Shown here: positions 1-59,274 of the stretch, piece after piece
How positions within the stretch are numbered: position 1 is the first letter of the stretch
Layout: each line of letters starts with the position of its first letter
Assembly: GCA_046350935.1 (NCBI GenBank)
Contig: JAXLZK010000010.1
Span: 18,569 to 82,568 of the forward strand
DNA: 64,000 nucleotides
Direction: 5' to 3'
Source: Thermodesulfovibrionales bacterium
GTDB lineage: Bacteria; Nitrospirota; Thermodesulfovibrionia; Thermodesulfovibrionales; Dissulfurispiraceae
The notes under the pieces: model-generated
The model's input: the letters and a program-made list of their open reading frames with translations, nothing else
What the model was told of the DNA's origin: nothing
Database searches by the model: none
Translations under genes and position numbers: made by a program

Positions 1-1102
1 CCGCCACTTTCCGGGCGAACCCCGCAGCGGCCTTCCACGGGTAGGCAACGGCGTCCATGAGCTCCGGCGGCGCCGCTTCCATCTTTTTGCCCCTCCCCCT
101 CACTGCGGCGACCGCTCCCCGTACTGCCAGGGAGGCGGTGCTTTTCGGGTTGAGCAGGATGTCGAGGACCTCGATGAGCACCGCGACGGCCAGCCTGCCC
201 CTCCCGAGCCTGCATTCCATCGCTTCCAGAGCCTTTTTGTGGTACTCCCAGAACTGCCTCTCCCTGAAGGAGAGCACGCTCTTCCCCAGGAACCGGTAAT
301 ACTCGTTCAGCTTCGCCTCCCACCGCTTCCCGAACTCCTCGGCCGGGAGGTAGACGGGTCCGTACTTTTTGAGCAGATACAGGTAGCCCGGCATATAGGT
401 ATTGAGTCTCCGCGCCAGGGAGGTCATCGCCTCGCTGCCCCTCCGCGTATACGAAAGCACCTGGTGCACATACCCGAAGTCGGAATCCTCCAGGACCTCG
501 AAGCAGACTTCCGTATCCGCATGGAAGTTGCTCTCGTTGTAGAATCTTTCCCGCATCCTGATGAGGGAGGAGCGCAGGAGGAGCGTGGTGGGAGACCCGA
601 ACACGTAGAGCTTTTCCGTGAGAGTGCGCACGCAGATCTCTCTTCCCGGCACCACCGTGCTGGGATAGGGCAGCCCGTCGCAGTTCACCCGCGTATCGTC
701 GATCCGGTAGGCCCCCACGATCGCCACCGAGGGGTTCTCCTCGGCCACCTGCACCATCTTCATCAGGCACTCGGGAAACAGCCAGTCGTCGGCATGCACC
801 ACTTTCACGTACGTGCTCCCGCGGGAGATCTGGCGCAGCGCATGGTTCCAGTTCTGCATGATGGGCAGAAAGCTCCCGTTGTGGTGGATGCGGATGCGCC
901 GGTCGCGTTGTGCGTACTCCTCCATGATGCCCGGAGAAAGGTCGGTGCTGCAATTATTGACGATGATGTACTCCCAGTTCCGGTAGGTCTGGGCAAGGAC
1001 GCTCTCGATGCACTCCGCAAGGTGCTTCTCGCAGTTGTACACTGGTGTTACGACGCTGACAAGGGGCTGTCGGCTGCTTTCGATCGTATCGTCCCGGTTC
1101 AT
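1..1102 (-). CDS. Family 2 glycosyltransferase (3' end lies beyond the window start)
   Basis: Absent from the ORF track because it runs off the edge. My reverse-strand translation from ATG 1102 reads MNRDDTIESSRQPLVSVVTPVYNCEKHLAECIESVLAQTYRNWEYIIVNNCSTD..., the classic GT-A/GT2 N-terminus. The frame stays open to position 2. Confidence 0.8.
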   Translation of the reverse strand, partial: MNRDDTIESSRQPLVSVVTPVYNCEKHLAECIESVLAQTYRNWEYIIVNNCSTDLSPGIMEEYAQRDRRIRIHHNGSFLPIMQNWNHALRQISRGSTYVKVVHADDWLFPECLMKMVQVAEENPSVAIVGAYRIDDTRVNCDGLPYPSTVVPGREICVRTLTEKLYVFGSPTTLLLRSSLIRMRERFYNESNFHADTEVCFEVLEDSDFGYVHQVLSYTRRGSEAMTSLARRLNTYMPGYLYLLKKYGPVYLPAEEFGKRWEAKLNEYYRFLGKSVLSFRERQFWEYHKKALEAMECRLGRGRLAVAVLIEVLDILLNPKSTASLAVRGAVAAVRGRGKKMEAAPPELMDAVAYPWKAAAGFARKVA

Positions 1103-51922: not shown

Positions 51923-51977
51923 TGAAATAAAGAGTGGAGCTGAACGGGATCGAACCGTCGACCTCTTGAATGCCATT
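51923..51977. repeat. Left direct repeat of the integrated element: displaced 3' part of tRNA-Ala plus about 12 nt of flank
   Basis: TGAAATAAAGAG-TGGAGCTGAACGGGATCGAACCGTCGACCTCTTGAATGCCATT matches 59189-59244 except for one A in a homopolymer. It covers tRNA positions ~33-73, from the anticodon loop to the 3' end. Confidence 0.9.
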
Positions 51978-52135
51978 TACCTACATGTATCCCCTGTATT
52001 TTGTCCCCTGTCTCATCTTATTTGCTCTTATCTGTTTCTTCTAGTCCTTACTGATAAATTGTTCCTTCATATTATCCCTTGTTTTACCTTATCAAGTATA
52101 CAAAAACTATACACAACAAAAGGAGAACTAAAATG

Positions 52136-52161
52136 GAGGGCTTCGGCCCTCTCTCTTTTTT
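52136..52161 (+). terminator. Rho-independent terminator-like hairpin at the left edge of the element
   Basis: GAGGGC-TTCG-GCCCTC followed by TCTCTTTTTTG. It overlaps a 19-codon mini-ORF (MEGFGPLSFLLTLGTKCLE) that has an AAGGAG SD. Confidence 0.5.
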
Positions 52162-52162
52162 G

Positions 52163-52190
52163 TTGACTCTTGGGACAAAATGCTTAGAAT
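52163..52190 (+). promoter_or_regulatory. Candidate sigma-70 promoter of the cargo operon
   Basis: TTGACT (52163-68), a 16-nt spacer, then TAGAAT (52185-90). It lies 25 nt upstream of ATG 52216, which has an AGGAGG SD. Confidence 0.5.
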
Positions 52191-52215
52191 AGGTGAAAAC
52201 ACTCAGGAGGTTGCC

Positions 52216-52668
52216 ATGATGAAAGGACTGATTACACTTCTACTATGCTGTATGCCTGTTGTCGCTTTTGGGTTTGATTTGGAGACACTGGACGACGACT
52301 TTGATCCTAGGGATTTAAGGAATTACAAAGGGGCAACACTGGCAGTCTGCAATATAACTGATACCAAGGGAAAGATGGTCACTACTGCCAAAAAAGGGGA
52401 TACCATTACCTTTGCAAACTACTTTATTAAGACGGATTCCGAGCTTGTTGATTATGACGTTGATATAAGTTATCCCACTTCTAACTCAGGAAAATTCAAC
52501 ATGACAGCTAACTACAAAGGACAGTTGTATATAACAGGCAGTAGTAAGATCCAAATTGTTGCTCTATATTTTGTAATCCCAAATAGTTCCTATTCTTCAG
52601 GAACATTGACTGTGACGGCAACTGTTTCCTCATTCGGAACGTGTTCAAAAAGCATTACTGTAAATTAA
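52216..52668 (+). CDS. Cargo gene 1: small secreted protein of unknown function
   Basis: The signal peptide is MMKGLITLLLCCMPVVAFG. About 130 aa of beta-rich, Ser/Thr/Asn-rich sequence follow. I recognise no family. The track ORF starts at 52180. Confidence 0.6.
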   Translation: MMKGLITLLLCCMPVVAFGFDLETLDDDFDPRDLRNYKGATLAVCNITDTKGKMVTTAKKGDTITFANYFIKTDSELVDYDVDISYPTSNSGKFNMTANYKGQLYITGSSKIQIVALYFVIPNSSYSSGTLTVTATVSSFGTCSKSITVN

Positions 52669-52682
52669 TAGGAGGGGATTCC

Positions 52683-53108
52683 ATGAAAAAAGGGGTATCG
52701 GCAGTTCTAATTCTCTTTTTCTTATCTGCATGTGCAACAAGTCCTGACAGCATCCAGAGCGCGTATGTTTCTCCATTGCAGTACAAAGGATATGACTGTG
52801 ACCAGATCATTGAAGAATCCTCGCGCGTGGCCCGAAGAGTAGGCGAGCTGAATGGAAGCCTTACTAGAAAGGCAAGTAATGATGCCGTAGCCACAGGCGT
52901 AGGACTGGTATTGTTCTGGCCTGCTCTTTTATTTATTAAAGGGAACGGGCCTGAAGCGCAAGAATTTGCCCGAATGAAAGGTGAATATGAGGCATTAGAG
53001 AAAACTGCCATAGAGAGGAAGTGCAATACCGCAATGATGCCCAAAATACAATTGCAGCAGCCTGAGCAAGAAAAAGTAAACATCTCTAGTACAGTACCAG
53101 GTATTTAG
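52683..53108 (+). CDS. Cargo gene 2: lipoprotein of unknown function
   Basis: ATG 52683 is preceded by a GGAGGGG SD. The lipobox is VLILFFLSAC. The pattern YVSPLQYKGYDCDQI..GVGLVLFWPALLFIKGNGPEAQEFARMKGEYEALEKTAIERKC matches a widespread uncharacterised lipoprotein family, as far as I remember. Confidence 0.6.
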   Translation: MKKGVSAVLILFFLSACATSPDSIQSAYVSPLQYKGYDCDQIIEESSRVARRVGELNGSLTRKASNDAVATGVGLVLFWPALLFIKGNGPEAQEFARMKGEYEALEKTAIERKCNTAMMPKIQLQQPEQEKVNISSTVPGI

Positions 53109-53227
53109 ACGAGTTTCTATCCTATAAAAAGAGAGAATTACAGGGGATAGGGTAGCTCCCGAAAAGCCGCACTCCGCGGCCTTCCCCTGATCAATTCCGG
53201 AGAACCACGTCGGAGAGGTGGAACGAA

Positions 53228-54235
53228 ATGGAAAAGATTTTTGCCCGCAAGAAGGATTTAATCATAAGAGACCCCGTATACAGGAGTGCTAATAAATTGC
53301 TCGCTAAGATAGTTGCTGCACGGTGTGAGAACGGAGAGAACATTTTAGCACCGCACGCTACGTACGATCCTATTTTTGATGAAATAGGAAGATATTATGC
53401 TACTTCCTTTTGTCCCGATAAAATCCGGGACCAGCATGAAAAAGAGCATCCTGATTATTGGGAGCTTTTTCGGCTAACCGGAGAGATAGGCAGTAAGTGG
53501 CGTGTGCATGTGGAGATCAACTTTGCAGAAAAGGAGATATCTGTTGCGCCATACACCCATGACGAAGCAATATGGGTGGGATGCCCTCCTTTTGATAAGT
53601 ACGCAACGCATAACGCCTCTGTCCACTATCCTCAATTAAAATGGACTCCATACCCCAATCCTTTCAACAAGCCACCAATTTTGGCAGATATCAACGAATT
53701 TACCACTCCAGGGTACAAATGTCCAGGGAACTGGATACCAATTTTAATTAATGCCTCCCGACTGAATTATCAGGACGCTAAAGAGATAAAAAAGCGAATA
53801 TGGGAGTTTGTTGAGAAGCGTTTGACTAAAGGTAAAGACACGTCCCCGGAGCATGAATACCTGGAATGCGCTTTCCTGTACAGCACAAAGGAGAGTACCT
53901 TTAAAAATTATTTGCGATGGTATGATCTTCATGTCAATGAAAAGATAAGTATTCGCTTGATTGCTCACATTGAAAGCAATCCGGGGAAGGCAATAGAAAC
54001 CCTGCAACGACTTAATCACGGCAAAATAAAATGGGGCCTTACCATCGCCGGAGAGGATAAGATTCAAAAAGGGGTAGCCAAGGTCTTTAAAGCAATTCAC
54101 CGGAAAGACTATACAAAAGAGGATGTGATGGAAGAATATAATTGCCCGTCTCATGGAAGTAATTGTCCTCAAAAATGTTCCTACCTGAAGGAATGGGAGG
54201 GAAAGTTCAACCGACTATTTCCAAGTAATATTTAA
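53228..54235 (+). CDS. Cargo gene 3: 335-aa cytoplasmic protein of unknown function
   Basis: Intact ORF with AT-rich codon usage like the rest of the element. There is a possible HTH-like segment (YLRWYDLHVNEKISIRLIAHIE). A C-terminal Cys/His cluster reads NCPSHGSNCPQKCSY. I recognise no family. Confidence 0.55.
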   Translation: MEKIFARKKDLIIRDPVYRSANKLLAKIVAARCENGENILAPHATYDPIFDEIGRYYATSFCPDKIRDQHEKEHPDYWELFRLTGEIGSKWRVHVEINFAEKEISVAPYTHDEAIWVGCPPFDKYATHNASVHYPQLKWTPYPNPFNKPPILADINEFTTPGYKCPGNWIPILINASRLNYQDAKEIKKRIWEFVEKRLTKGKDTSPEHEYLECAFLYSTKESTFKNYLRWYDLHVNEKISIRLIAHIESNPGKAIETLQRLNHGKIKWGLTIAGEDKIQKGVAKVFKAIHRKDYTKEDVMEEYNCPSHGSNCPQKCSYLKEWEGKFNRLFPSNI

Positions 54236-54344
54236 AAGCCCCTGAATTAAAAAGAGAATAAAAGCACCCCCTCTTTTTTTCGGATTTTTCGTAGGTAGGA
54301 GAGCCTGGCTCTCCTGCGAAACGAAACCCGAGAAGGAGAGTGGA

Positions 54345-54599
54345 ATGAAGGAAAAACAGTTTCATACCGGTGATGTCTATGTCGCCGCCGCCGTAACCCT
54401 CCAGATTGGCAAGCCGCCAGAGTTCAAGACAGAGAAACAGAAGGTCCTTTTTGTTTTCCCTATCAGCGATGAGCTGCATAAGGCACTTAACGCATTCAGC
54501 AGTGGTGTCTCACTCAATGCCTATGAATTCGCTCAGATGATTAAGCGCTTGCGCGCCGAAATGCTGATGAGGAAGGGACAGGCAGGGAGTACGAAATGA
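54345..54599 (+). CDS. Small protein, DUF5659-like (from memory)
   Basis: The 84-aa sequence ..TGDVYVAAAVTLQIGKPPEFKTEKQKVLFVFPISDELHKALNAFSSGVSLNAYEFAQMIKRLRAEM resembles small proteins found next to replication genes of phage and islands. Its stop overlaps the next ATG (ATGA). Confidence 0.4.
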   Translation: MKEKQFHTGDVYVAAAVTLQIGKPPEFKTEKQKVLFVFPISDELHKALNAFSSGVSLNAYEFAQMIKRLRAEMLMRKGQAGSTK

Positions 54600-55123
54600 T
54601 AAAGCCGGACCTATCGCAGGTGATCGAATCCGAGGGAATAATCCTCCGACAGCGTGGTAAGGACTTCTGGGCCTGTTGCCCTCTCCACGGAGAAAAAACC
54701 CCTAGCTTCAAGGTTGACCCAGACCGGCAGACATTCTATTGCTTCGGTTGCCATGAGCACGGGGACGTGATTTCTTTTATCCAGAAACATAGGGGTCTTT
54801 CTTTCAAAGATGCAATCCGCTACCTGGGCATGACCACCGGACCCCTCACACCGTCCCGCCGGGCAGAGATCGAGCTGCAACGCCGGAAGAGGGAAGCGAC
54901 ACAAGAGTTCCGGGCCTGGGTAGACGAATACCATCGAGAGTTGTGCTCGCTGTATCGCTGCTTACAGACAGCCAAAAGAAAAGCCCGAACCCCGGAAGAG
55001 GTGGAGAGGATAGCACCTTCGTATCACAAAGAAACCGAATGGATTCGGCGGCTGGACATTCTGGAATCCGGCAGCGATGAGGAGAAATTCAGGTTATGGA
55101 AAGAGGTGAAGACGGATGAGTGA
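54596..55123 (+). CDS. CHC2 zinc-finger (DnaG-type primase N-terminal) protein, no TOPRIM domain
   Basis: FWACCPLHGEKTPSFKVDPDRQTFYCFGCHEHGDVISFIQKHRGLSFKDAIRYL is a canonical zf-CHC2. The protein is only 175 aa. Confidence 0.8.
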   Translation: MIKPDLSQVIESEGIILRQRGKDFWACCPLHGEKTPSFKVDPDRQTFYCFGCHEHGDVISFIQKHRGLSFKDAIRYLGMTTGPLTPSRRAEIELQRRKREATQEFRAWVDEYHRELCSLYRCLQTAKRKARTPEEVERIAPSYHKETEWIRRLDILESGSDEEKFRLWKEVKTDE

Positions 55124-56048
55124 TTTTGACCTGGGGAACCAGCTTCTGAAAGAGCAGCGCGGCTTAAAGGCAGTAAGCCTTACTGAGATTCTCGCCATGG
55201 AGTTTCCTCCAAGGGAGAACATTCTTTACCCATGGCTTCCTTCTCAGGGGCTTGCAATGCTTTACGGAACAAGAGGCACGGGGAAAACTCATGTTGCCCT
55301 GGGAATCGCCGTAGCTGTAGCGAGTGGGGGGAGCTTTCTGAAGTGGACCGCCCCGAAACCGCGCGGTGTTCTTCTTCTTGACGGTGAGATGCCCGCCGTA
55401 ACGCTTCAGGAGCGGCTGAGCGCCATTATATGCAGTAGCGACAAAGAGCCGGTATCACCTCTTACTATCATCACACCTGACCTTCAGAAGGAGGGCATGC
55501 CAAATCTTGCACATTCAGACGACCAAGAAAATATTGAAGAGCACCTTAAAAATATTTCCCTTGTGATTGTCGACAACCTTTCCACTCTTTGCCGGTACGG
55601 GCGGGAGAATGAGGGAGAATCATGGCTACCAGTGCAGGAGTGGGCCTTACGTCTTCGTACCATGGGAATCAGCGTGCTTTTCATCCACCACGCAGGAAAG
55701 GGGGGACAGCAGCGCGGTACCAGCCGCAAAGAGGACGTGCTGGATACGGTCATTGCGCTGAAGAGACCCGCCGATTACCGGCCCGACGAGGGAGCCCGTT
55801 TTGAGGTCTACTTTGAAAAGGCCAGGGGAATCTATGGGGACGAGGTGAAACCCTTTGAAGCACGGCTTACCACCACACCGGAGGGCGCACAGATATGGAC
55901 CATGAAGGACCTGGAAGATTCTTTGACAGAACGCATTGCCGAAATGCTCAACGAGGGCATACCGCAGAGCGAGATACCGGAGTTCTTGGGCGTGGGGAAG
56001 GCGACGGTTTCAAGGCACAAGCAGAAGGCAAGGAACGAGGATTATTGA
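55116..56048 (+). CDS. RepA-like AAA/RecA-fold ATPase (AAA_25 type) with C-terminal HTH
   Basis: Walker A is LYGTRGTGKTHVALGIAVAVASG and Walker B is LVIVDNLSTL, followed by ISVLFIHHAGKGGQQRGTSRKEDVLDTVIAL. The terminal HTH is IPEFLGVGKATVSRHKQKA. It overlaps the upstream gene by 8 nt. Confidence 0.75.
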   Translation: MSDFDLGNQLLKEQRGLKAVSLTEILAMEFPPRENILYPWLPSQGLAMLYGTRGTGKTHVALGIAVAVASGGSFLKWTAPKPRGVLLLDGEMPAVTLQERLSAIICSSDKEPVSPLTIITPDLQKEGMPNLAHSDDQENIEEHLKNISLVIVDNLSTLCRYGRENEGESWLPVQEWALRLRTMGISVLFIHHAGKGGQQRGTSRKEDVLDTVIALKRPADYRPDEGARFEVYFEKARGIYGDEVKPFEARLTTTPEGAQIWTMKDLEDSLTERIAEMLNEGIPQSEIPEFLGVGKATVSRHKQKARNEDY

Positions 56049-56062
56049 AGGGGTAATGAGTT

Positions 56063-56266
56063 GTTCCGCTGTTCCACTCTCTAGGGAATGGAACGCGGAA
56101 CAAAACACAGGAAAACGAGAAACAAGGAGCGGAACACCATGGAACAGAACGGCATAAAAGCCTTAGCACTCAAGGTAATACAGCGGAACAACCAGCGGAA
56201 CATGAACGGAACAGAGGGCGAAATAGAGCGGAACAAAACGCATAATCACGGAACAGACCGCGGAAC
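56063..56266. repeat. Iteron array (candidate replication origin): at least 10 copies of (G)CGGAAC
   Basis: - Seven direct GCGGAAC copies begin at 56095, 56129, 56183, 56195, 56228 and 56260, plus CGGAAC at 56207.
- A further CGGAAC begins at 56249 and GGAAC at 56141.
- Two inverted copies (GTTCCGC and GTTCC) lie at 56063-56075.
- The array starts 15 nt after the RepA-like gene. Confidence 0.65.
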
Positions 56267-56513
56267 GCTCCAGAAAACTTTTGACTCTCTCTTCCGGGAG
56301 CACATGGCATTTCTCCGGGGACATTCTACGACCCTTGATGAGATTAGACGGCATGACCCGGAAATAGCCGAAGAACTCCTCTCTCTTTCACGGGCGATGG
56401 ATGCGGCATGGCTCAGGGAAGACCTTCCGGCCTTCAGGGAGAGTATGCAGCGGCTGGAGACGCGGTATCTTCAGGCGCACAGGTGGATTACAGCAGTCCG
56501 TCTCTTAACCTAA
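56139..56513 (+). CDS. Hypothetical protein of the element
   Basis: ATG 56139 has an AAGGAG SD 9 nt upstream. The track ORF starts at 56088. The first ~40 codons overlap the iterons, which read as repeated R-N dipeptides. The C-terminal part is helical. I recognise no family. Confidence 0.45.
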   Translation: MEQNGIKALALKVIQRNNQRNMNGTEGEIERNKTHNHGTDRGTLQKTFDSLFREHMAFLRGHSTTLDEIRRHDPEIAEELLSLSRAMDAAWLREDLPAFRESMQRLETRYLQAHRWITAVRLLT

Positions 56514-56544
56514 ATTAACCGCAACCACGGTAAACGGAGGAATA

Positions 56545-57135
56545 ATGCGAAAGATTGACGATAGCAAACTTTTAGAAATGATTGAGGACGGTAAATCTCA
56601 AAAAGACTGTGCTGCATTCTTCAATGTCAGTGAACCGGCAATCACGAAACGCTTAAAGAAGCTAAGAGCTTGTGTGCTCCCGGAATCAGTGAAGCGGCTA
56701 ACGGGCAAAGAACAGCGCTTTGTACTCGCTCTTACTCAGGGGAGAACCCAAACGGCGGCAGCAATGGAAGCCTTCGATGTAACGAGCCGTGACAGTGCAA
56801 AAACTATAGGGAGCCGACTTGCTAAAGAGCCGGAAATTAAGGCCGCTATCACGGACCTGCTAAGCATGAAAGGTGCTTCCCCGGGATGGGTGGCGGAGAG
56901 ATTCAAATTCTGGGGGGATGCTCTGGACCCGCAGGCATCACTAAGGGCGGTGGAGAATGTGGCGAAGCTTCACGACCTCTACCCCGCATCCAAGAGCATG
57001 AATATGAACATCGACATGGCAACTCTTGTGAAAGTCGATCTGAGCGAGTACGAGAACCCGGAGCCCATCTCCATACAAGGTGAGACAGGGATTAACTGTC
57101 CTGAAAATTGTAACGCGTCCGAGGAGGAGAAATGA
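56545..57135 (+). CDS. Terminase small-subunit-like DNA-binding protein (extra N-terminal HTH)
   Basis: LTGKEQRFVLALTQGRTQTAAAMEAFDVTSRDSAKTIGSRLAKEPEIKAAITDLL follows the Terminase_2 pattern LT.KQ.rF..eY....N.tqAa..AGYs...A...g.rLl....i..aI. The N-terminal HTH is GKSQKDCAAFFNVSEPAITKRLKKL. Confidence 0.55.
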   Translation: MRKIDDSKLLEMIEDGKSQKDCAAFFNVSEPAITKRLKKLRACVLPESVKRLTGKEQRFVLALTQGRTQTAAAMEAFDVTSRDSAKTIGSRLAKEPEIKAAITDLLSMKGASPGWVAERFKFWGDALDPQASLRAVENVAKLHDLYPASKSMNMNIDMATLVKVDLSEYENPEPISIQGETGINCPENCNASEEEK

Positions 57136-57205
57136 TATTTATTGTCTCCTGGGAGTCCCTGTTGCCCCCTCCCCCCTGGGGCCTGGAGGTTGGAGGTAAA
57201 TAGCA

Positions 57206-57508
57206 TTGAAAATTGAACTCGAAGGGCAAGACATTGAGGCAGTGGCGTTAAGAGTGGTTGAACTCATAAGACCCGCTCTTGCTTTACTCAGTAAGCAAGA
57301 GGATGATACCATCTATGACCCTGAAAGCCTTGCACAGTATCTCAGGGTAGATGTTTCATGGATATACAAGAAAGTATCGCTTAAAGCTATCCCATACTTC
57401 AAAAGCGGGAAATATACAAGGTTCAGGAAGTCCGCAATAGATAAATGGATCGAGATGCAGACGGTGAAGCCAGTCCACTTTATAAAGCAGGGAAAAGGGC
57501 AGGGGTGA
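57206..57508 (+). CDS. Excisionase/AlpA-like helix-turn-helix protein
   Basis: The gene uses a TTG start. The C-terminal half SLAQYLRVDVSWIYKKVSLKAIPYFKSGKYTRFRKSAIDKWIE matches the HTH_17/excisionase pattern. Confidence 0.6.
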   Translation: MKIELEGQDIEAVALRVVELIRPALALLSKQEDDTIYDPESLAQYLRVDVSWIYKKVSLKAIPYFKSGKYTRFRKSAIDKWIEMQTVKPVHFIKQGKGQG

Positions 57509-57602
57509 GCACTTGATAATATATCATGAAACCTTGGGAAAAAATAATAACAAATCAGTACCATTTAGTCACCTGTATAGTGAATTGTATACTTCATTCA
57601 TC

Positions 57603-57632
57603 TTGACAACATCTAACTTAGTTAGGCATAAT
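57603..57632 (+). promoter_or_regulatory. Promoter with embedded palindromic operator, giving a leaderless XRE transcript
   Basis: TTGACA (57603-08), an 18-nt spacer, then CATAAT (57627-32). The spacer contains the perfect palindrome CTAACT-T-AGTTAG (57613-25). ATG 57639 lies 6 nt after the -10 and there is no SD. Confidence 0.55.
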
Positions 57633-57638
57633 TTGAAC

Positions 57639-57872
57639 ATGAAGGAATGGACGAAAGAGGAAATCAAACAGTTCAGAGAGTGCCTAGAGCTTTCGCAACC
57701 TGCTTTCGGAAAGCTTATAGGGGTAACAGGGAATTACGTCTATCTAATTGAAAAGGGGGTGAAGAAACCTAGCAGGACATTAGTGCTTTTGCTCAACTGT
57801 ATTGAGGAGAAGGCATCAACAAAGAAAAAGGAAAGGGTGGTAACTAGTTATGGACTGGCAAGAGAAAATTGA
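57639..57872 (+). CDS. XRE/Cro-CI-family HTH regulator
   Basis: MKEWTKEEIKQFRECLELSQPAFGKLIGVTGNYVYLIEKGVKKPSRTLVLLL is an HTH_3 pattern. The track ORF begins at 57513, upstream of the promoter. Confidence 0.75.
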   Translation: MKEWTKEEIKQFRECLELSQPAFGKLIGVTGNYVYLIEKGVKKPSRTLVLLLNCIEEKASTKKKERVVTSYGLAREN

Positions 57873-58062
57873 GGAGCATTTGACGTTGCTGTTGGTCTCC
57901 TTTTTGTTGTCTCGTATATCTTTGAAAGTGTTAGGGGATGGCTGCAAGAGAATCTAGTCCTTGTGCTCTCTACGCTAATTGTAGTAGCCGTTATAGACTT
58001 GAAAAATCACATTGATGGCGCTGCAACGCGGTACTTCTTAAATCATGAAAGGGGAATGAACT

Positions 58063-59173
58063 ATGGCGAAAGGGATATATAAGCGTGGGAGTATTTTCTG
58101 GATTCGCTATGCAGGACTAGACGGAAAGATTGTTTTTGAAACTTCCGGCTCTAATAAGTTTAAAGATGCCGAAACCCTACTTATCAAGCGGAAGAACTCT
58201 ATCAAGGAAGGTAAGCAGCCGGAAATTAAGAAAATAGGGAATCATACCTTTAATGAGCTTGTCGACCAGTACAAGAAATGGGCTGAACGGCAGCGGAGCT
58301 TTAAGAGCAAAGAGTACCTTATAGATCAATTAGCAGAAAATTTCGAAACCTCCCTTTACGGCGCTTCAACACCATGCTTCTTGAACAGTTCCAATCCGAA
58401 CGTTTACAGAAGGGTAAAGAGCGAGAAGTGAAGCCGGGATATAAGCCGATAGCAGTTACAGGGAATAAGCCTGCTACGGTTAACAGGTTTATTGCTACAA
58501 TCTCTCATATGTTCACCAAGGCCGTAGAATGGGACATGGTGGAAGAGAAACATTAAGACGTGTTCGCAAGGTAAAGCTTCTCCTGAGAACAATAAGCGGC
58601 TCCGATATCTCTCAAAAGAGGAATGCCAAACACTGATAGAGAAGTGCGATACACATTTAAAGCCTATCGTCATTACGGCTCTTAATACCGGAATGCGGAA
58701 GAGTGAAATACTTTTCCTCAAATGGGATAACGTAGACCTGAAGCACGGCTTTATCCTACTGGACATAACGAAAAATGGCGAACGTAGAGAGATACCCATC
58801 AATAATACCCTGAAAGCCTTACTACAGAGCATTACACGGCGTTTAGACGTACCTTACGTGTTCTTTGAGCCTTCCACTGGGAAGCCTTACGGTAATGTGA
58901 AAGAAGCTTCAATACGGCCCTGGAGGAATGCAAAGATACGGGACTTTCATTTTCATGACCTACGGCATACCTTCGCATCTCATCTAGTAATGGCGGGAAT
59001 AGACCTTACGACAGTAAAGAACTCTTAGGGCACAAGGATATTAAAATGACCTGAGATATGCCCATCTTGCACCGGCGCATAAGGTGAAAGCTGTAGATAT
59101 TCTAGATAACGCACTGTCTGGAAAGCCAACTATACAAAAAGTATACAATCAGGTGGTTGGTGGAGAATTTTAA
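58063..59173 (+). pseudogene. int: Tyrosine recombinase/integrase of the element, at least four frameshifts
   Basis: - MAKGIYKRGSIFWIRYAGLDGKIVFETSGS.. is the Arm/SAM-like N-terminus, in ORF 58063..58431.
- ..MLLEQFQSERL..NKPATVNRFIATISHMFTKAVEW is in ORF 58374..58556.
- ..ALNTGMRKSEILFLKWDNVDL..FHFHDLRHTFASHLVMAGIDLTTVK is in ORF 58693..59028.
- ..LLGHKDIKMT.RYAHLAPAH..VVGGEF lies in other frames.
The catalytic R, HxxR and Y contexts are all present. Confidence 0.8.
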
Positions 59174-59188
59174 TGGTAGGCAAGTGGT

Positions 59189-59274
<86 letters not shown>

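Follow-up and report, generated by a model that had tools for sequence, protein, structure and literature searches.

What is a dense cluster of short repeats doing directly behind a helicase-like gene? The question is raised by a 64,000-nucleotide stretch of the genome of a Thermodesulfovibrionales bacterium (contig JAXLZK010000010.1, positions 18,569 to 82,568; hereafter the window). In this stretch, a gene for a RepA-like ATPase with a C-terminal helix-turn-helix (HTH) domain is followed by an array of GGAAC-containing repeats, or iterons, at 56062-56267, both lying within a 7.3-kb integrated island. Our proposal is that this island, which resembles a phage satellite or a phage-inducible chromosomal island (PICI), has its cis-acting replication origin in the array, and we put the probability of this reading at roughly 0.7. 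The proposal was made because the layout of the locus matches that of the replicons of PICIs and of the pathogenicity islands found in Staphylococcus aureus (SaPIs).

A dense iteron array follows the ATPase gene

By motif count, GGAAC occurs 12 times in 56062-56267. Ten copies are direct (starting at 56090, 56097, 56131, 56141, 56185, 56197, 56208, 56230, 56250 and 56262) and two, at the 5' edge, are inverted (56063 and 56071). An earlier note on this DNA had described the same arrangement, with at least 10 copies of GCGGAAC or its cores CGGAAC and GGAAC in about 200 bp. The consensus of the array is (A)GCGGAACA, and we write the core repeat as CGGAACA. Counted over 56040-56290, the longer forms comprise six direct and one inverted copy of GCGGAAC, and eight direct and one inverted copy of CGGAAC. 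The stop codon of the ATPase gene occupies 56046-56048 and the first iteron follows 14-15 nt later (56062/56063), in agreement with the 15 nt reported previously.

The density of the motif was compared with 100 first-order Markov simulations of 64 kb, scored by their maximum per 204 bp. The simulated maximum was 5 for GGAAC and 4 for CGGAAC, as against 12 and 9 observed. The runner-up among the 250-bp segments of the 64 kb held four copies of GGAAC, and CGGAAC occurred only three times outside the array within the island. Equal abundance of the motif elsewhere, which the earlier note had named as the finding that would count against an array, was therefore not what this comparison with the rest of the window revealed. 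Relative to the open reading frame (ORF) that the array overlaps, the direct copies lie in frames 2, 0, 1, 2, 1, 1, 0, 1, 0 and 0, and the inverted copies lie upstream of the ORF start. Because the motif occupies all three frames and both strands, the array is a signal at the level of DNA and not a peptide repeat.

The spacings between successive copies are, in order, 8, 19, 7, 34, 10, 44, 12, 11, 22, 20 and 12 bp. They had been called irregular, at 12-54 bp; they in fact range from 7 to 44 bp and fit a conserved grammar with a phasing of about 11 bp. At the 5' end, two inverted iterons identified by motif match (TGTTCCG at 56062-56068 and TGTTCCA at 56070-56076, − strand) form the left arm of a palindromic core. 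They face a pair of direct iterons (TGGAACG at 56089-56095 and CGGAACA at 56096-56102, + strand), which the grammar identifies as the right arm, or '>>' pair; the remaining copies in the window are all direct. Together the two pairs make up an imperfect palindrome of 43 nt, '<< CTAG >>', at 56061-56103, centred on CTAG at 56081-56084. Folded as single-stranded DNA, this segment gave a hairpin of −16.7 kcal/mol (z = −7.2), and none of 200 shuffles folded equally well. The palindromic core is a candidate for a symmetric loading or melting site.

Two phased triplets on the + strand come next. The first, assigned through the grammar, consists of AGAAACA (56118-56124), CGGAACA (56130-56136) and TGGAACA (56140-56146); its degenerate first member has two mismatches and owes its position to the grammar only. 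The second comprises three copies of CGGAACA (56184-56190, 56196-56202 and 56207-56213) and starts 44 bp past the last site of the first. Between the triplets there is thus a spacer of about 37 bp, or 44 bp when measured from start to start; its central segment (56154-56180, + strand) encodes I-K-A-L-A-L-K-V-I according to the family alignment. Motif matching placed three more direct iterons distally on the + strand (CGGAACA at 56229-56235 and 56249-56255, and CGGAACG at 56261-56267), and a possible degenerate terminal inverted copy, TCTTCCG with one mismatch, is present at 56290-56296. A promoter and terminator scan of 55800-56700 found nothing in the array, with counts at the level of shuffled sequence and no sigma-70-like promoter there. 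The Rfam scan of the island likewise placed no RNA family on the array, its sole matches being a tRNA and an int-alpA motif elsewhere.

The adjacent gene encodes a putative helicase with a DNA-binding domain

The gene at 55116-56048 (+ strand) encodes a putative initiator-helicase in which a RepA-like RecA-fold ATPase (Pfam AAA_25, E = 4e-29) is joined to a C-terminal three-helix HTH. The Walker A (GTRGTGKT) and Walker B (LVIVDN) motifs are invariant in the family alignment. RepA of plasmid RSF1010 was the only sequence match to the ATPase in the PDB (1g8y, E = 3.5e-8). It was also the best fold match to the AlphaFold model of the monomer (1g8y/1nlf; target-normalised TM-score of 0.69-0.71), followed by DnaB, RadA and KaiC. 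These comparisons point to a putative hexameric-helicase fold of the RSF1010 RepA type. The HTH was modelled as helices 266-279, 284-291 and 295-307, with pLDDT confidence values of 82-90 and no wing. The recognition helix, residues 295-307 (KATVSRHKQKARN), is encoded at approximately 55998-56036. No RepC-like gene was seen among the island genes.

The helicase belongs to a large family: among 8,000 candidates scored, 5,958 proteins matched at E < 1e-10. In many relatives the helicase-HTH is fused to a Toprim_3, Prim-Pol, PriCT_1/archaeo-eukaryotic primase (AEP) or Zn-ribbon primase domain, and these fusions to four types of primase domain argue for a role of the family in replication. None of the curated NCBIfam models names the family. 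Neither the 72,556 plasmid records nor the isolated-phage collection contained a protein closely related to the ATPase, and they therefore offered no annotated origin to draw on.

The array and its grammar are conserved among relatives

Relatives were present in 264 stretches of GTDB genomes, 80 of which were kept, and in 78 IMG/VR contigs. Arrays were scored in 75 loci from genomes and 38 from viral contigs by counting the commonest 6-mer in the 430 bp past the ATPase stop. The median was 9 copies in the genome loci, compared with 3 in 3,252 control windows, and 7 in the viral contigs, compared with 4 in their controls. In 54 of the 75 genome loci and 21 of the 38 viral-contig loci, this post-stop segment scored strictly higher than the rest of its locus. 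Overall, about two-thirds of some 110 relatives, which came from Nitrospirota, Desulfobacterota and Proteobacteria, had a clear array directly past the ATPase stop, and the relatives with arrays carried 7-19 copies of 6-7-mers.

Each locus has its own word. GGAAAC is the word of most loci in Nitrospirota and Desulfobacterota; others include TGCAAC, CGCAAC, TGGGAC, TGCGAC, TGCACC, TGAAAC, TGGTCC and GTGAGAA, and there are more. CGGAAC was found in the window and in one related locus, L003, only. Most of the common words can be accommodated in a single register, N-G-N-N-A-C. The residues that the iterons encode change with the class of the word, to GN, RN or AT. Hence it is the array that relatives keep and not the peptide repeats, the reverse of the pattern that, according to the earlier note, would have spoken against an iteron array.

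The arrangement of the sites is strongly conserved across word classes, where exact copies can be scored. With inverted and direct sites written as < and >, and distances in bp, the grammar reads '<<'(7-8)-17..21-'>>'(7-8)-20..21-'>'-12-'>'-11-'>'-43..44-'>'-12-'>'-11-'>'. Beyond the second triplet there are extra sites at 11 or 22 bp, and inverted copies often close the arrays. Most loci keep the gap of 43-44 bp and the steps of 12 and 11 bp behind it. Plotted as a histogram, the distances between adjacent sites peak at 8, 11-12, 21-22, 32-34, 43-44, 54-56 and 67 bp. Of the 79 loci with seven or more copies, 49 had the '< ... >>' core by exact 6-mer matching. Most aligned relatives have a CTAG- or TATAGG-like palindrome centre, whatever their iteron word. 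The window matches the grammar site for site, the degenerate first member of its first triplet excepted. The ATPase gene is the only one that always accompanies the array; homologs of the small-terminase-like gene (terS) and of the overlapping ORF of the window (orf141) were each found in 3 of 80 loci.

The largest array, 19 copies of GGAAAC located 6-324 nt past the ATPase stop, was observed in the Nitrospiraceae bacterium Ngb-4 (L026). Part of this array has apparently been duplicated ahead of the canonical core, which accounts for the 19 copies and indicates that arrays can expand.

The iteron word tracks the recognition helix

Comparison of about 60 loci revealed that the word of the array varies with the recognition helix of the adjacent helicase. 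GGAAAC pairs with K-G-T-V-S-K (G296 in 17 of 19 and K300 in 19 of 19), TGCAAC and CGCAAC with K-S-(T/N)-V-S-R, CGGAAC with K-A-T-V-S-R, and TGGGAC with E-T-G...K-S-(T/K)-V-x-R. In a tree of the ATPase core the word classes interleave. When pairs of loci were sorted into three bands of core identity, those with the same residues at positions 296, 297 and 300 shared their word in 52 of 74, 74 of 99 and 38 of 39 cases (70-97%), and those with different residues did so in 24 of 401, 82 of 570 and 25 of 76 (6-33%), figures whose effect size counts rather than a p-value because the pairs are non-independent.

The window itself illustrates the pattern. Its core domain is nearest to those of L001 and L002, both of the GGAAAC class (74% identity). 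Its third HTH helix is identical in all 13 residues to that of L003, the other CGGAAC locus, at a core identity of 69.5%. Across the larger classes, S296 occurs in 37 of 38 arrays with a GCAAC core. The base preceding GCAAC is C in a median fraction of 0.93 where residue 297 is Asn and 0.32 where it is Thr. Four homologs fetched later and chosen by their helix had the core word predicted for them: each array had a GCAAC core, rather than GGAAAC or CGGAAC, in the canonical grammar. A strict rule by which N297 reads C and T297 reads T had to be softened when out-of-sample loci gave mixed T and C; for T or C at iteron position 1 there is a tendency rather than a code.

These data provide strong indirect evidence that the HTH of the helicase itself binds the iterons, a conclusion that we consider somewhat more secure than the origin function. 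They argue equally strongly, if indirectly, that HTH and array are inherited or swapped as one unit. The specificity for the iterons would be set by the C-terminal HTH, as the co-variation is independent of core identity. Binding by this HTH had been offered in the earlier note as an alternative to an origin. It has become the best-supported part of the analysis; what falls away is its standing as an alternative, binding being a step of the same mechanism.

The spacer between the triplets encodes a conserved peptide

A downstream ORF (56139-56513, + strand), translated as 124 residues from the ATG at 56139 or as 141 residues from the ATG at 56088, has its 5' end inside the array. The overlap exists under either start and yields ERN, QRN and TRN tripeptides, the run of Arg-Asn dipeptides noticed previously. 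A Shine-Dalgarno sequence, AAGGAG at 56123, precedes the ATG at 56139, and that ATG is supplied by the iteron TGGAACA. In some related loci, too, an iteron supplies the ATG of the ORF (aTGgaaac, aTGcaac); in many others the ATG overlaps the stop codon of the ATPase gene, and public gene calls agree.

In the frame of the downstream ORF, the spacer of 43-44 bp between the triplets encodes S-L-K-A-L-A-x-K-V-L-x-(R/G)-N. The peptide was found in 38 non-redundant loci representing most iteron classes (spacers of L001-L090, L159, L161 and L162). Entropy at the three codon positions was 0.94, 0.60 and 1.41, and synonymous codons were freely used (CTG, CTT, CTC, TTG and TTA for Leu; GCA, GCC, GCG and GCT for Ala). 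Both observations argue that the spacer is under selection at the level of protein, beyond that of DNA. We had initially taken the N-terminal tail of the ORF to be unconstrained, a view that the family-wide conservation of the peptide overturned. The conserved N-terminal helix may be a peptide that docks to the helicase or primase, or may link expression to origin firing. The position of the peptide within the array suggests that origin firing may be coupled to a helicase-docking or regulatory peptide.

The remainder of the ORF is variable. The C-terminal domains of the downstream ORFs are unrelated between loci, even those that share a word; several are Cys-rich, and a Pfam search of those of the relatives returned no match. 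In the window, a C-terminal helical bundle starts at D57 of the 141-residue reading (around 56256), which is also where conservation begins, and residues 58-140 were modelled with a pLDDT of about 90. The ORF had four homologs only in a search of 5.8 billion proteins. It matched nothing in Pfam, PHROG or NCBIfam, and the model of the bundle matched no fold in the PDB.

The array as a proposed replication origin

In the mechanism that we infer, the HTH domains of the helicase would read the CGGAACA iterons once the island had been excised. The core '<< CTAG >>' would present a symmetric site for helicase rings assembled in opposite orientations. The triplets, phased at about 11 bp, would line up many HTHs along one DNA face; the protein would thereby be concentrated and oriented, and the duplex strained to the point of opening. 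The helicase would then load itself, and the co-translated Zn-ribbon primase-like partner would prime synthesis for the host polymerase. In relatives, priming would fall to the fused Toprim, Prim-Pol or AEP primases. For the family as a whole, we see an even chance that its members are self-loading initiator-helicases of the RecA-fold superfamily 4 (SF4; RepA/DnaB-like), in which the helix and the N-G-N-N-A-C word change together within a fixed grammar that has no AT-rich element and encodes a peptide in its spacer.

Several points weigh against the origin reading or parts of it. Self-loading by this helicase superfamily is an extrapolation, because RSF1010 RepA needs a separate initiator. No AT-rich unwinding element was found in the window or in the grammar-anchored profile of the family: AT content is 50% in the array, 56% in the central spacer and 53.6% in the island, and the family average is about 0.50 at arrays against a background of 0.46. 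Since the spacer is under protein-level selection, the conserved spacing may partly reflect coding constraints. Between about one-quarter and one-third of the related loci have a weak array or none by the simple 6-mer count. The Zn-ribbon protein of the island (54596-55123) has no Toprim or AEP catalytic domain. The integrase gene is frame-shifted, and this copy of the island may therefore no longer excise or replicate. The non-independence of the locus pairs and the looseness of the T/C preference belong on the same side of the balance.

Among other functions for the array, an operator deserves the most attention and is nonetheless unlikely. The ATPase-HTH protein, or its HTH in the role of repressor or activator, would in that case control transcription or translation of the ORF starting inside the array together with that of the genes for TerS, the excisionase (Xis) and the integrase (Int), with no origin function. 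The array does span the Shine-Dalgarno sequence at 56123 and the start at 56139, with an iteron supplying the ATG, matches to the HTH include regulators of the KorA/TrfB and MarR types, and the co-variation of HTH and iterons, which backs binding, is silent on what binding does. However, there is no sigma-70-like promoter in the array, and 10-19 phased sites with a palindromic core far exceed what an operator needs. Moreover, the DNA-binding domain is always joined to a replicative-helicase fold, often also to a primase, and loci differ in the body of the gene that would be regulated. Regulation and origin function could exist side by side, as they do in iteron plasmids.

A centromere-like or copy-control (handcuffing) role, in which HTH-bound repeats pair or segregate excised copies instead of initiating replication, we consider quite improbable. 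In its phasing of about 11 bp the array resembles parC of R1 and other type II plasmid centromeres; by contrast, a palindromic core is not a centromere feature, the predicted binder is a helicase, and no ParA, ParM or TubZ was seen in the island or among the called genes of four related loci. The probability is lower again for a pac- or cos-like packaging site read by the TerS-like protein encoded 280 bp downstream (56545-57135). This protein has an N-terminal HTH, and terminase sites often adjoin terS or sit within it, but the motif tracks the helix of the ATPase. A pac site bound by TerS was rejected, as a TerS homolog occurs past the ATPase in 3 of 80 loci and the array in most. Least of all do we credit a coding repeat, that is, an R-N-rich low-complexity peptide, or a chance cluster. 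The array is indeed translated into ERN and QRN tripeptides, but a coding repeat is refuted by the distribution of the copies over frames and by encoded residues that differ between classes (GN, RN, AT), and enrichment far above the simulations speaks against chance.

Comparison with known systems

As a candidate origin, the array is best compared with those of SaPIs and PICIs. In SaPIs the Rep helicase loads itself, and the winged helix at its C-terminus recognizes the iterons just 3' of rep, which are 6-12 penta- or hexanucleotides (PMC9371898); pri-rep-ori segments of PICIs replicate autonomously (PMC6092414). In the island as in SaPIs and PICIs, including Gram-negative PICIs such as EcCICFT073, the initiator-helicase gene is followed immediately on its 3' side by the origin or proposed origin. 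The iterons are short (5-7 nt) and some are inverted, numbering 6-12 in the known systems and 12 in the window. Specificity resides in the C-terminal DNA-binding domain of the helicase, here judging by co-variation. A primase is adjacent or fused, the partner in the window being a Zn-ribbon only. All are small integrative islands with int, an xis/alpA-type HTH gene, att sites and sometimes terS. As to orientation, SaPI and PICI origins have two or more opposed iterons on either side; in the window an inverted pair faces a direct pair at the 5' core and the other copies are direct, apart from the one-mismatch candidate at 56290, whereas in many relatives further inverted copies close the array at its 3' end.

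The differences are equally clear. SaPI Rep is an AAA+ helicase of SF3 or SF6 with a winged-helix C-terminal domain, whereas the protein described here combines a RecA fold with a tri-helical HTH. Iterons of SaPIs and PICIs flank an AT-rich centre, which is missing from the array in the window. The fixed grammar, with a palindromic core and then two phased triplets, is a further difference, as are the translated ORF, with its conserved peptide, in which the proposed origin is embedded, and the hosts, which here are Nitrospirota, Desulfobacterota and diverse Proteobacteria. The earlier note had read the array as a SaPI/PICI-like iteron origin. The layout, the logic and the evidence from the family uphold that reading, the helicase superfamily and the AT-rich centre depart from it, and function as an origin is probable.

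Other replicons share parts of the design. RSF1010 RepA does not itself carry a DNA-recognition domain; its 20-bp iterons, beside an AT-rich region, are bound by a separate protein, RepC, and RepB' is the primase. The ATPase cores of RSF1010 (IncQ) and the island are homologous, and both are mobile elements with their own helicase, primase and iteron origin or candidate origin; in the island, however, the HTH is fused to the helicase and the iterons are 6-7 bp long. The alpha protein of phage P4 unites a primase, an SF3 helicase and a C-terminal domain that reads short repeats, which are grouped in two iteron regions, ori and crr, an organization reportedly described by Ziegelin and Lanka in 1995. 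P4 resembles the island in being a tRNA-integrated satellite with primase, helicase and DNA-binding domain in one polypeptide or operon, and differs in its SF3 motor, its separated ori and crr and its site grammar.

In phage lambda, the iterons of ori lie inside gene O and adjoin an AT-rich region, and O is not a helicase but recruits DnaB via P. The island shares with lambda the placement of iterons within a translated gene, which in lambda is the initiator's own. Classical iteron plasmids (Rep_3/RepA) have iterons of 17-22 bp, an initiator with WH1 and WH2 domains, DnaA boxes and an AT-rich DNA unwinding element. In the window, by contrast, the iterons are 6-7 bp, the candidate initiator is a helicase and an AT-rich element was not found.

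An iteron origin 3' of an initiator-helicase gene in a satellite-like island is thus known already. In the literature that we searched, we found no description of such a use of this helicase superfamily, of a fixed grammar lacking an AT-rich element, of the match between helix and word, or of a peptide encoded inside such an origin. Searches on AAA_25 together with iterons, satellites or primase gave nothing relevant, and neither the helicase family nor the array was found described in the literature on tycheposons/VEIME and on self-loading RepA helicases.

If the origin reading is correct, the design in which an initiator-helicase reads adjacent iterons, known for the AAA+ helicases of SaPIs, PICIs and P4, would also have arisen on a bacterial RecA-fold (DnaB/RepA) scaffold, and would be widespread in the integrative islands that Nitrospirota, Desulfobacterota and many Proteobacteria carry. 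Set against iteron positions 1, 3 and 4, helix residues 296, 297 and 300 would amount to a natural recognition table, which could predict incompatibility groups among islands. The conserved grammar, with no AT-rich element, bears on how a ring of the SF4 type might be loaded without a loader. In environmental genomes, a helicase-HTH gene with its array could serve as a marker for satellite-like elements, whose helicases the curated models call 'AAA family ATPase'.

Gene content of the island

The island spans 51925-59244 (7.3 kb) and has at each end a copy of an exact 53-bp direct repeat corresponding to the 3' part of tRNA-Ala(GGC). The left copy, attL, is at 51925-51977 and exactly repeats 59192-59244. 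The right copy, attR, overlaps the tRNA-Ala(GGC) gene at 59201-59274, so that the two occupy 59192-59274 (− strand; ARAGORN, Rfam tRNA and repeat search). GC content is 0.39-0.54 inside the island and about 0.58-0.59 in the flanking chromosome. All island genes lie on the + strand, and their content identifies the island as a phage-satellite or PICI-like element.

The primase-like Zn-ribbon protein (54596-55123, 175 residues) has a CHC2 finger at residues 5-79 (Pfam Zn_ribbon_DnaG, E = 1e-27). It matched DNA-primase families of PHROG and, in its N-terminal part only, TIGR01391 (dnaG); the end of its gene overlaps the start of the helicase gene by 8 nt. Downstream of the array, the small-terminase-like gene at 56545-57135 encodes an HTH_28 domain plus an N-terminal segment of Terminase_2 (at the gathering score; Pfam E = 1.5e-5), and matched the terminase small subunit in PHROG (E = 3e-9). 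It is followed by a gene for an excisionase/AlpA-type HTH_17 protein (57206-57508; Pfam HTH_17, E = 3.5e-10; TIGR01764, excise) and, in the gene list, by an HTH_3 regulator that precedes the integrase. Three-frame translation showed the tyrosine integrase (58063-59100) to be divided among at least three reading frames, with pieces at 58063-58431, 58374-58556 and 58693-59028, the last matching Pfam Phage_integrase, plus a shifted tail. The other island genes are intact, and the split integrase is either a decaying gene or the product of assembly indels.

The left part of the island contains an int-alpA RNA motif (RF02996) at 53140-53203 on the + strand, scoring 41.4 bits against a gathering threshold of 35.8 (E = 4.6e-6). 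An ORF of 335 residues (53228-54235) lies directly downstream of the motif, and the island also encodes an ORF with a weak match to DUF5659. Two small overlapping ORFs of 162 and 155 residues at 52180-53108, for which no homologs were found in related loci, have N-termini resembling signal peptides or those of lipoproteins. They sit in the part of the island with the lowest GC content (0.39-0.43) and are possibly accessory cargo.

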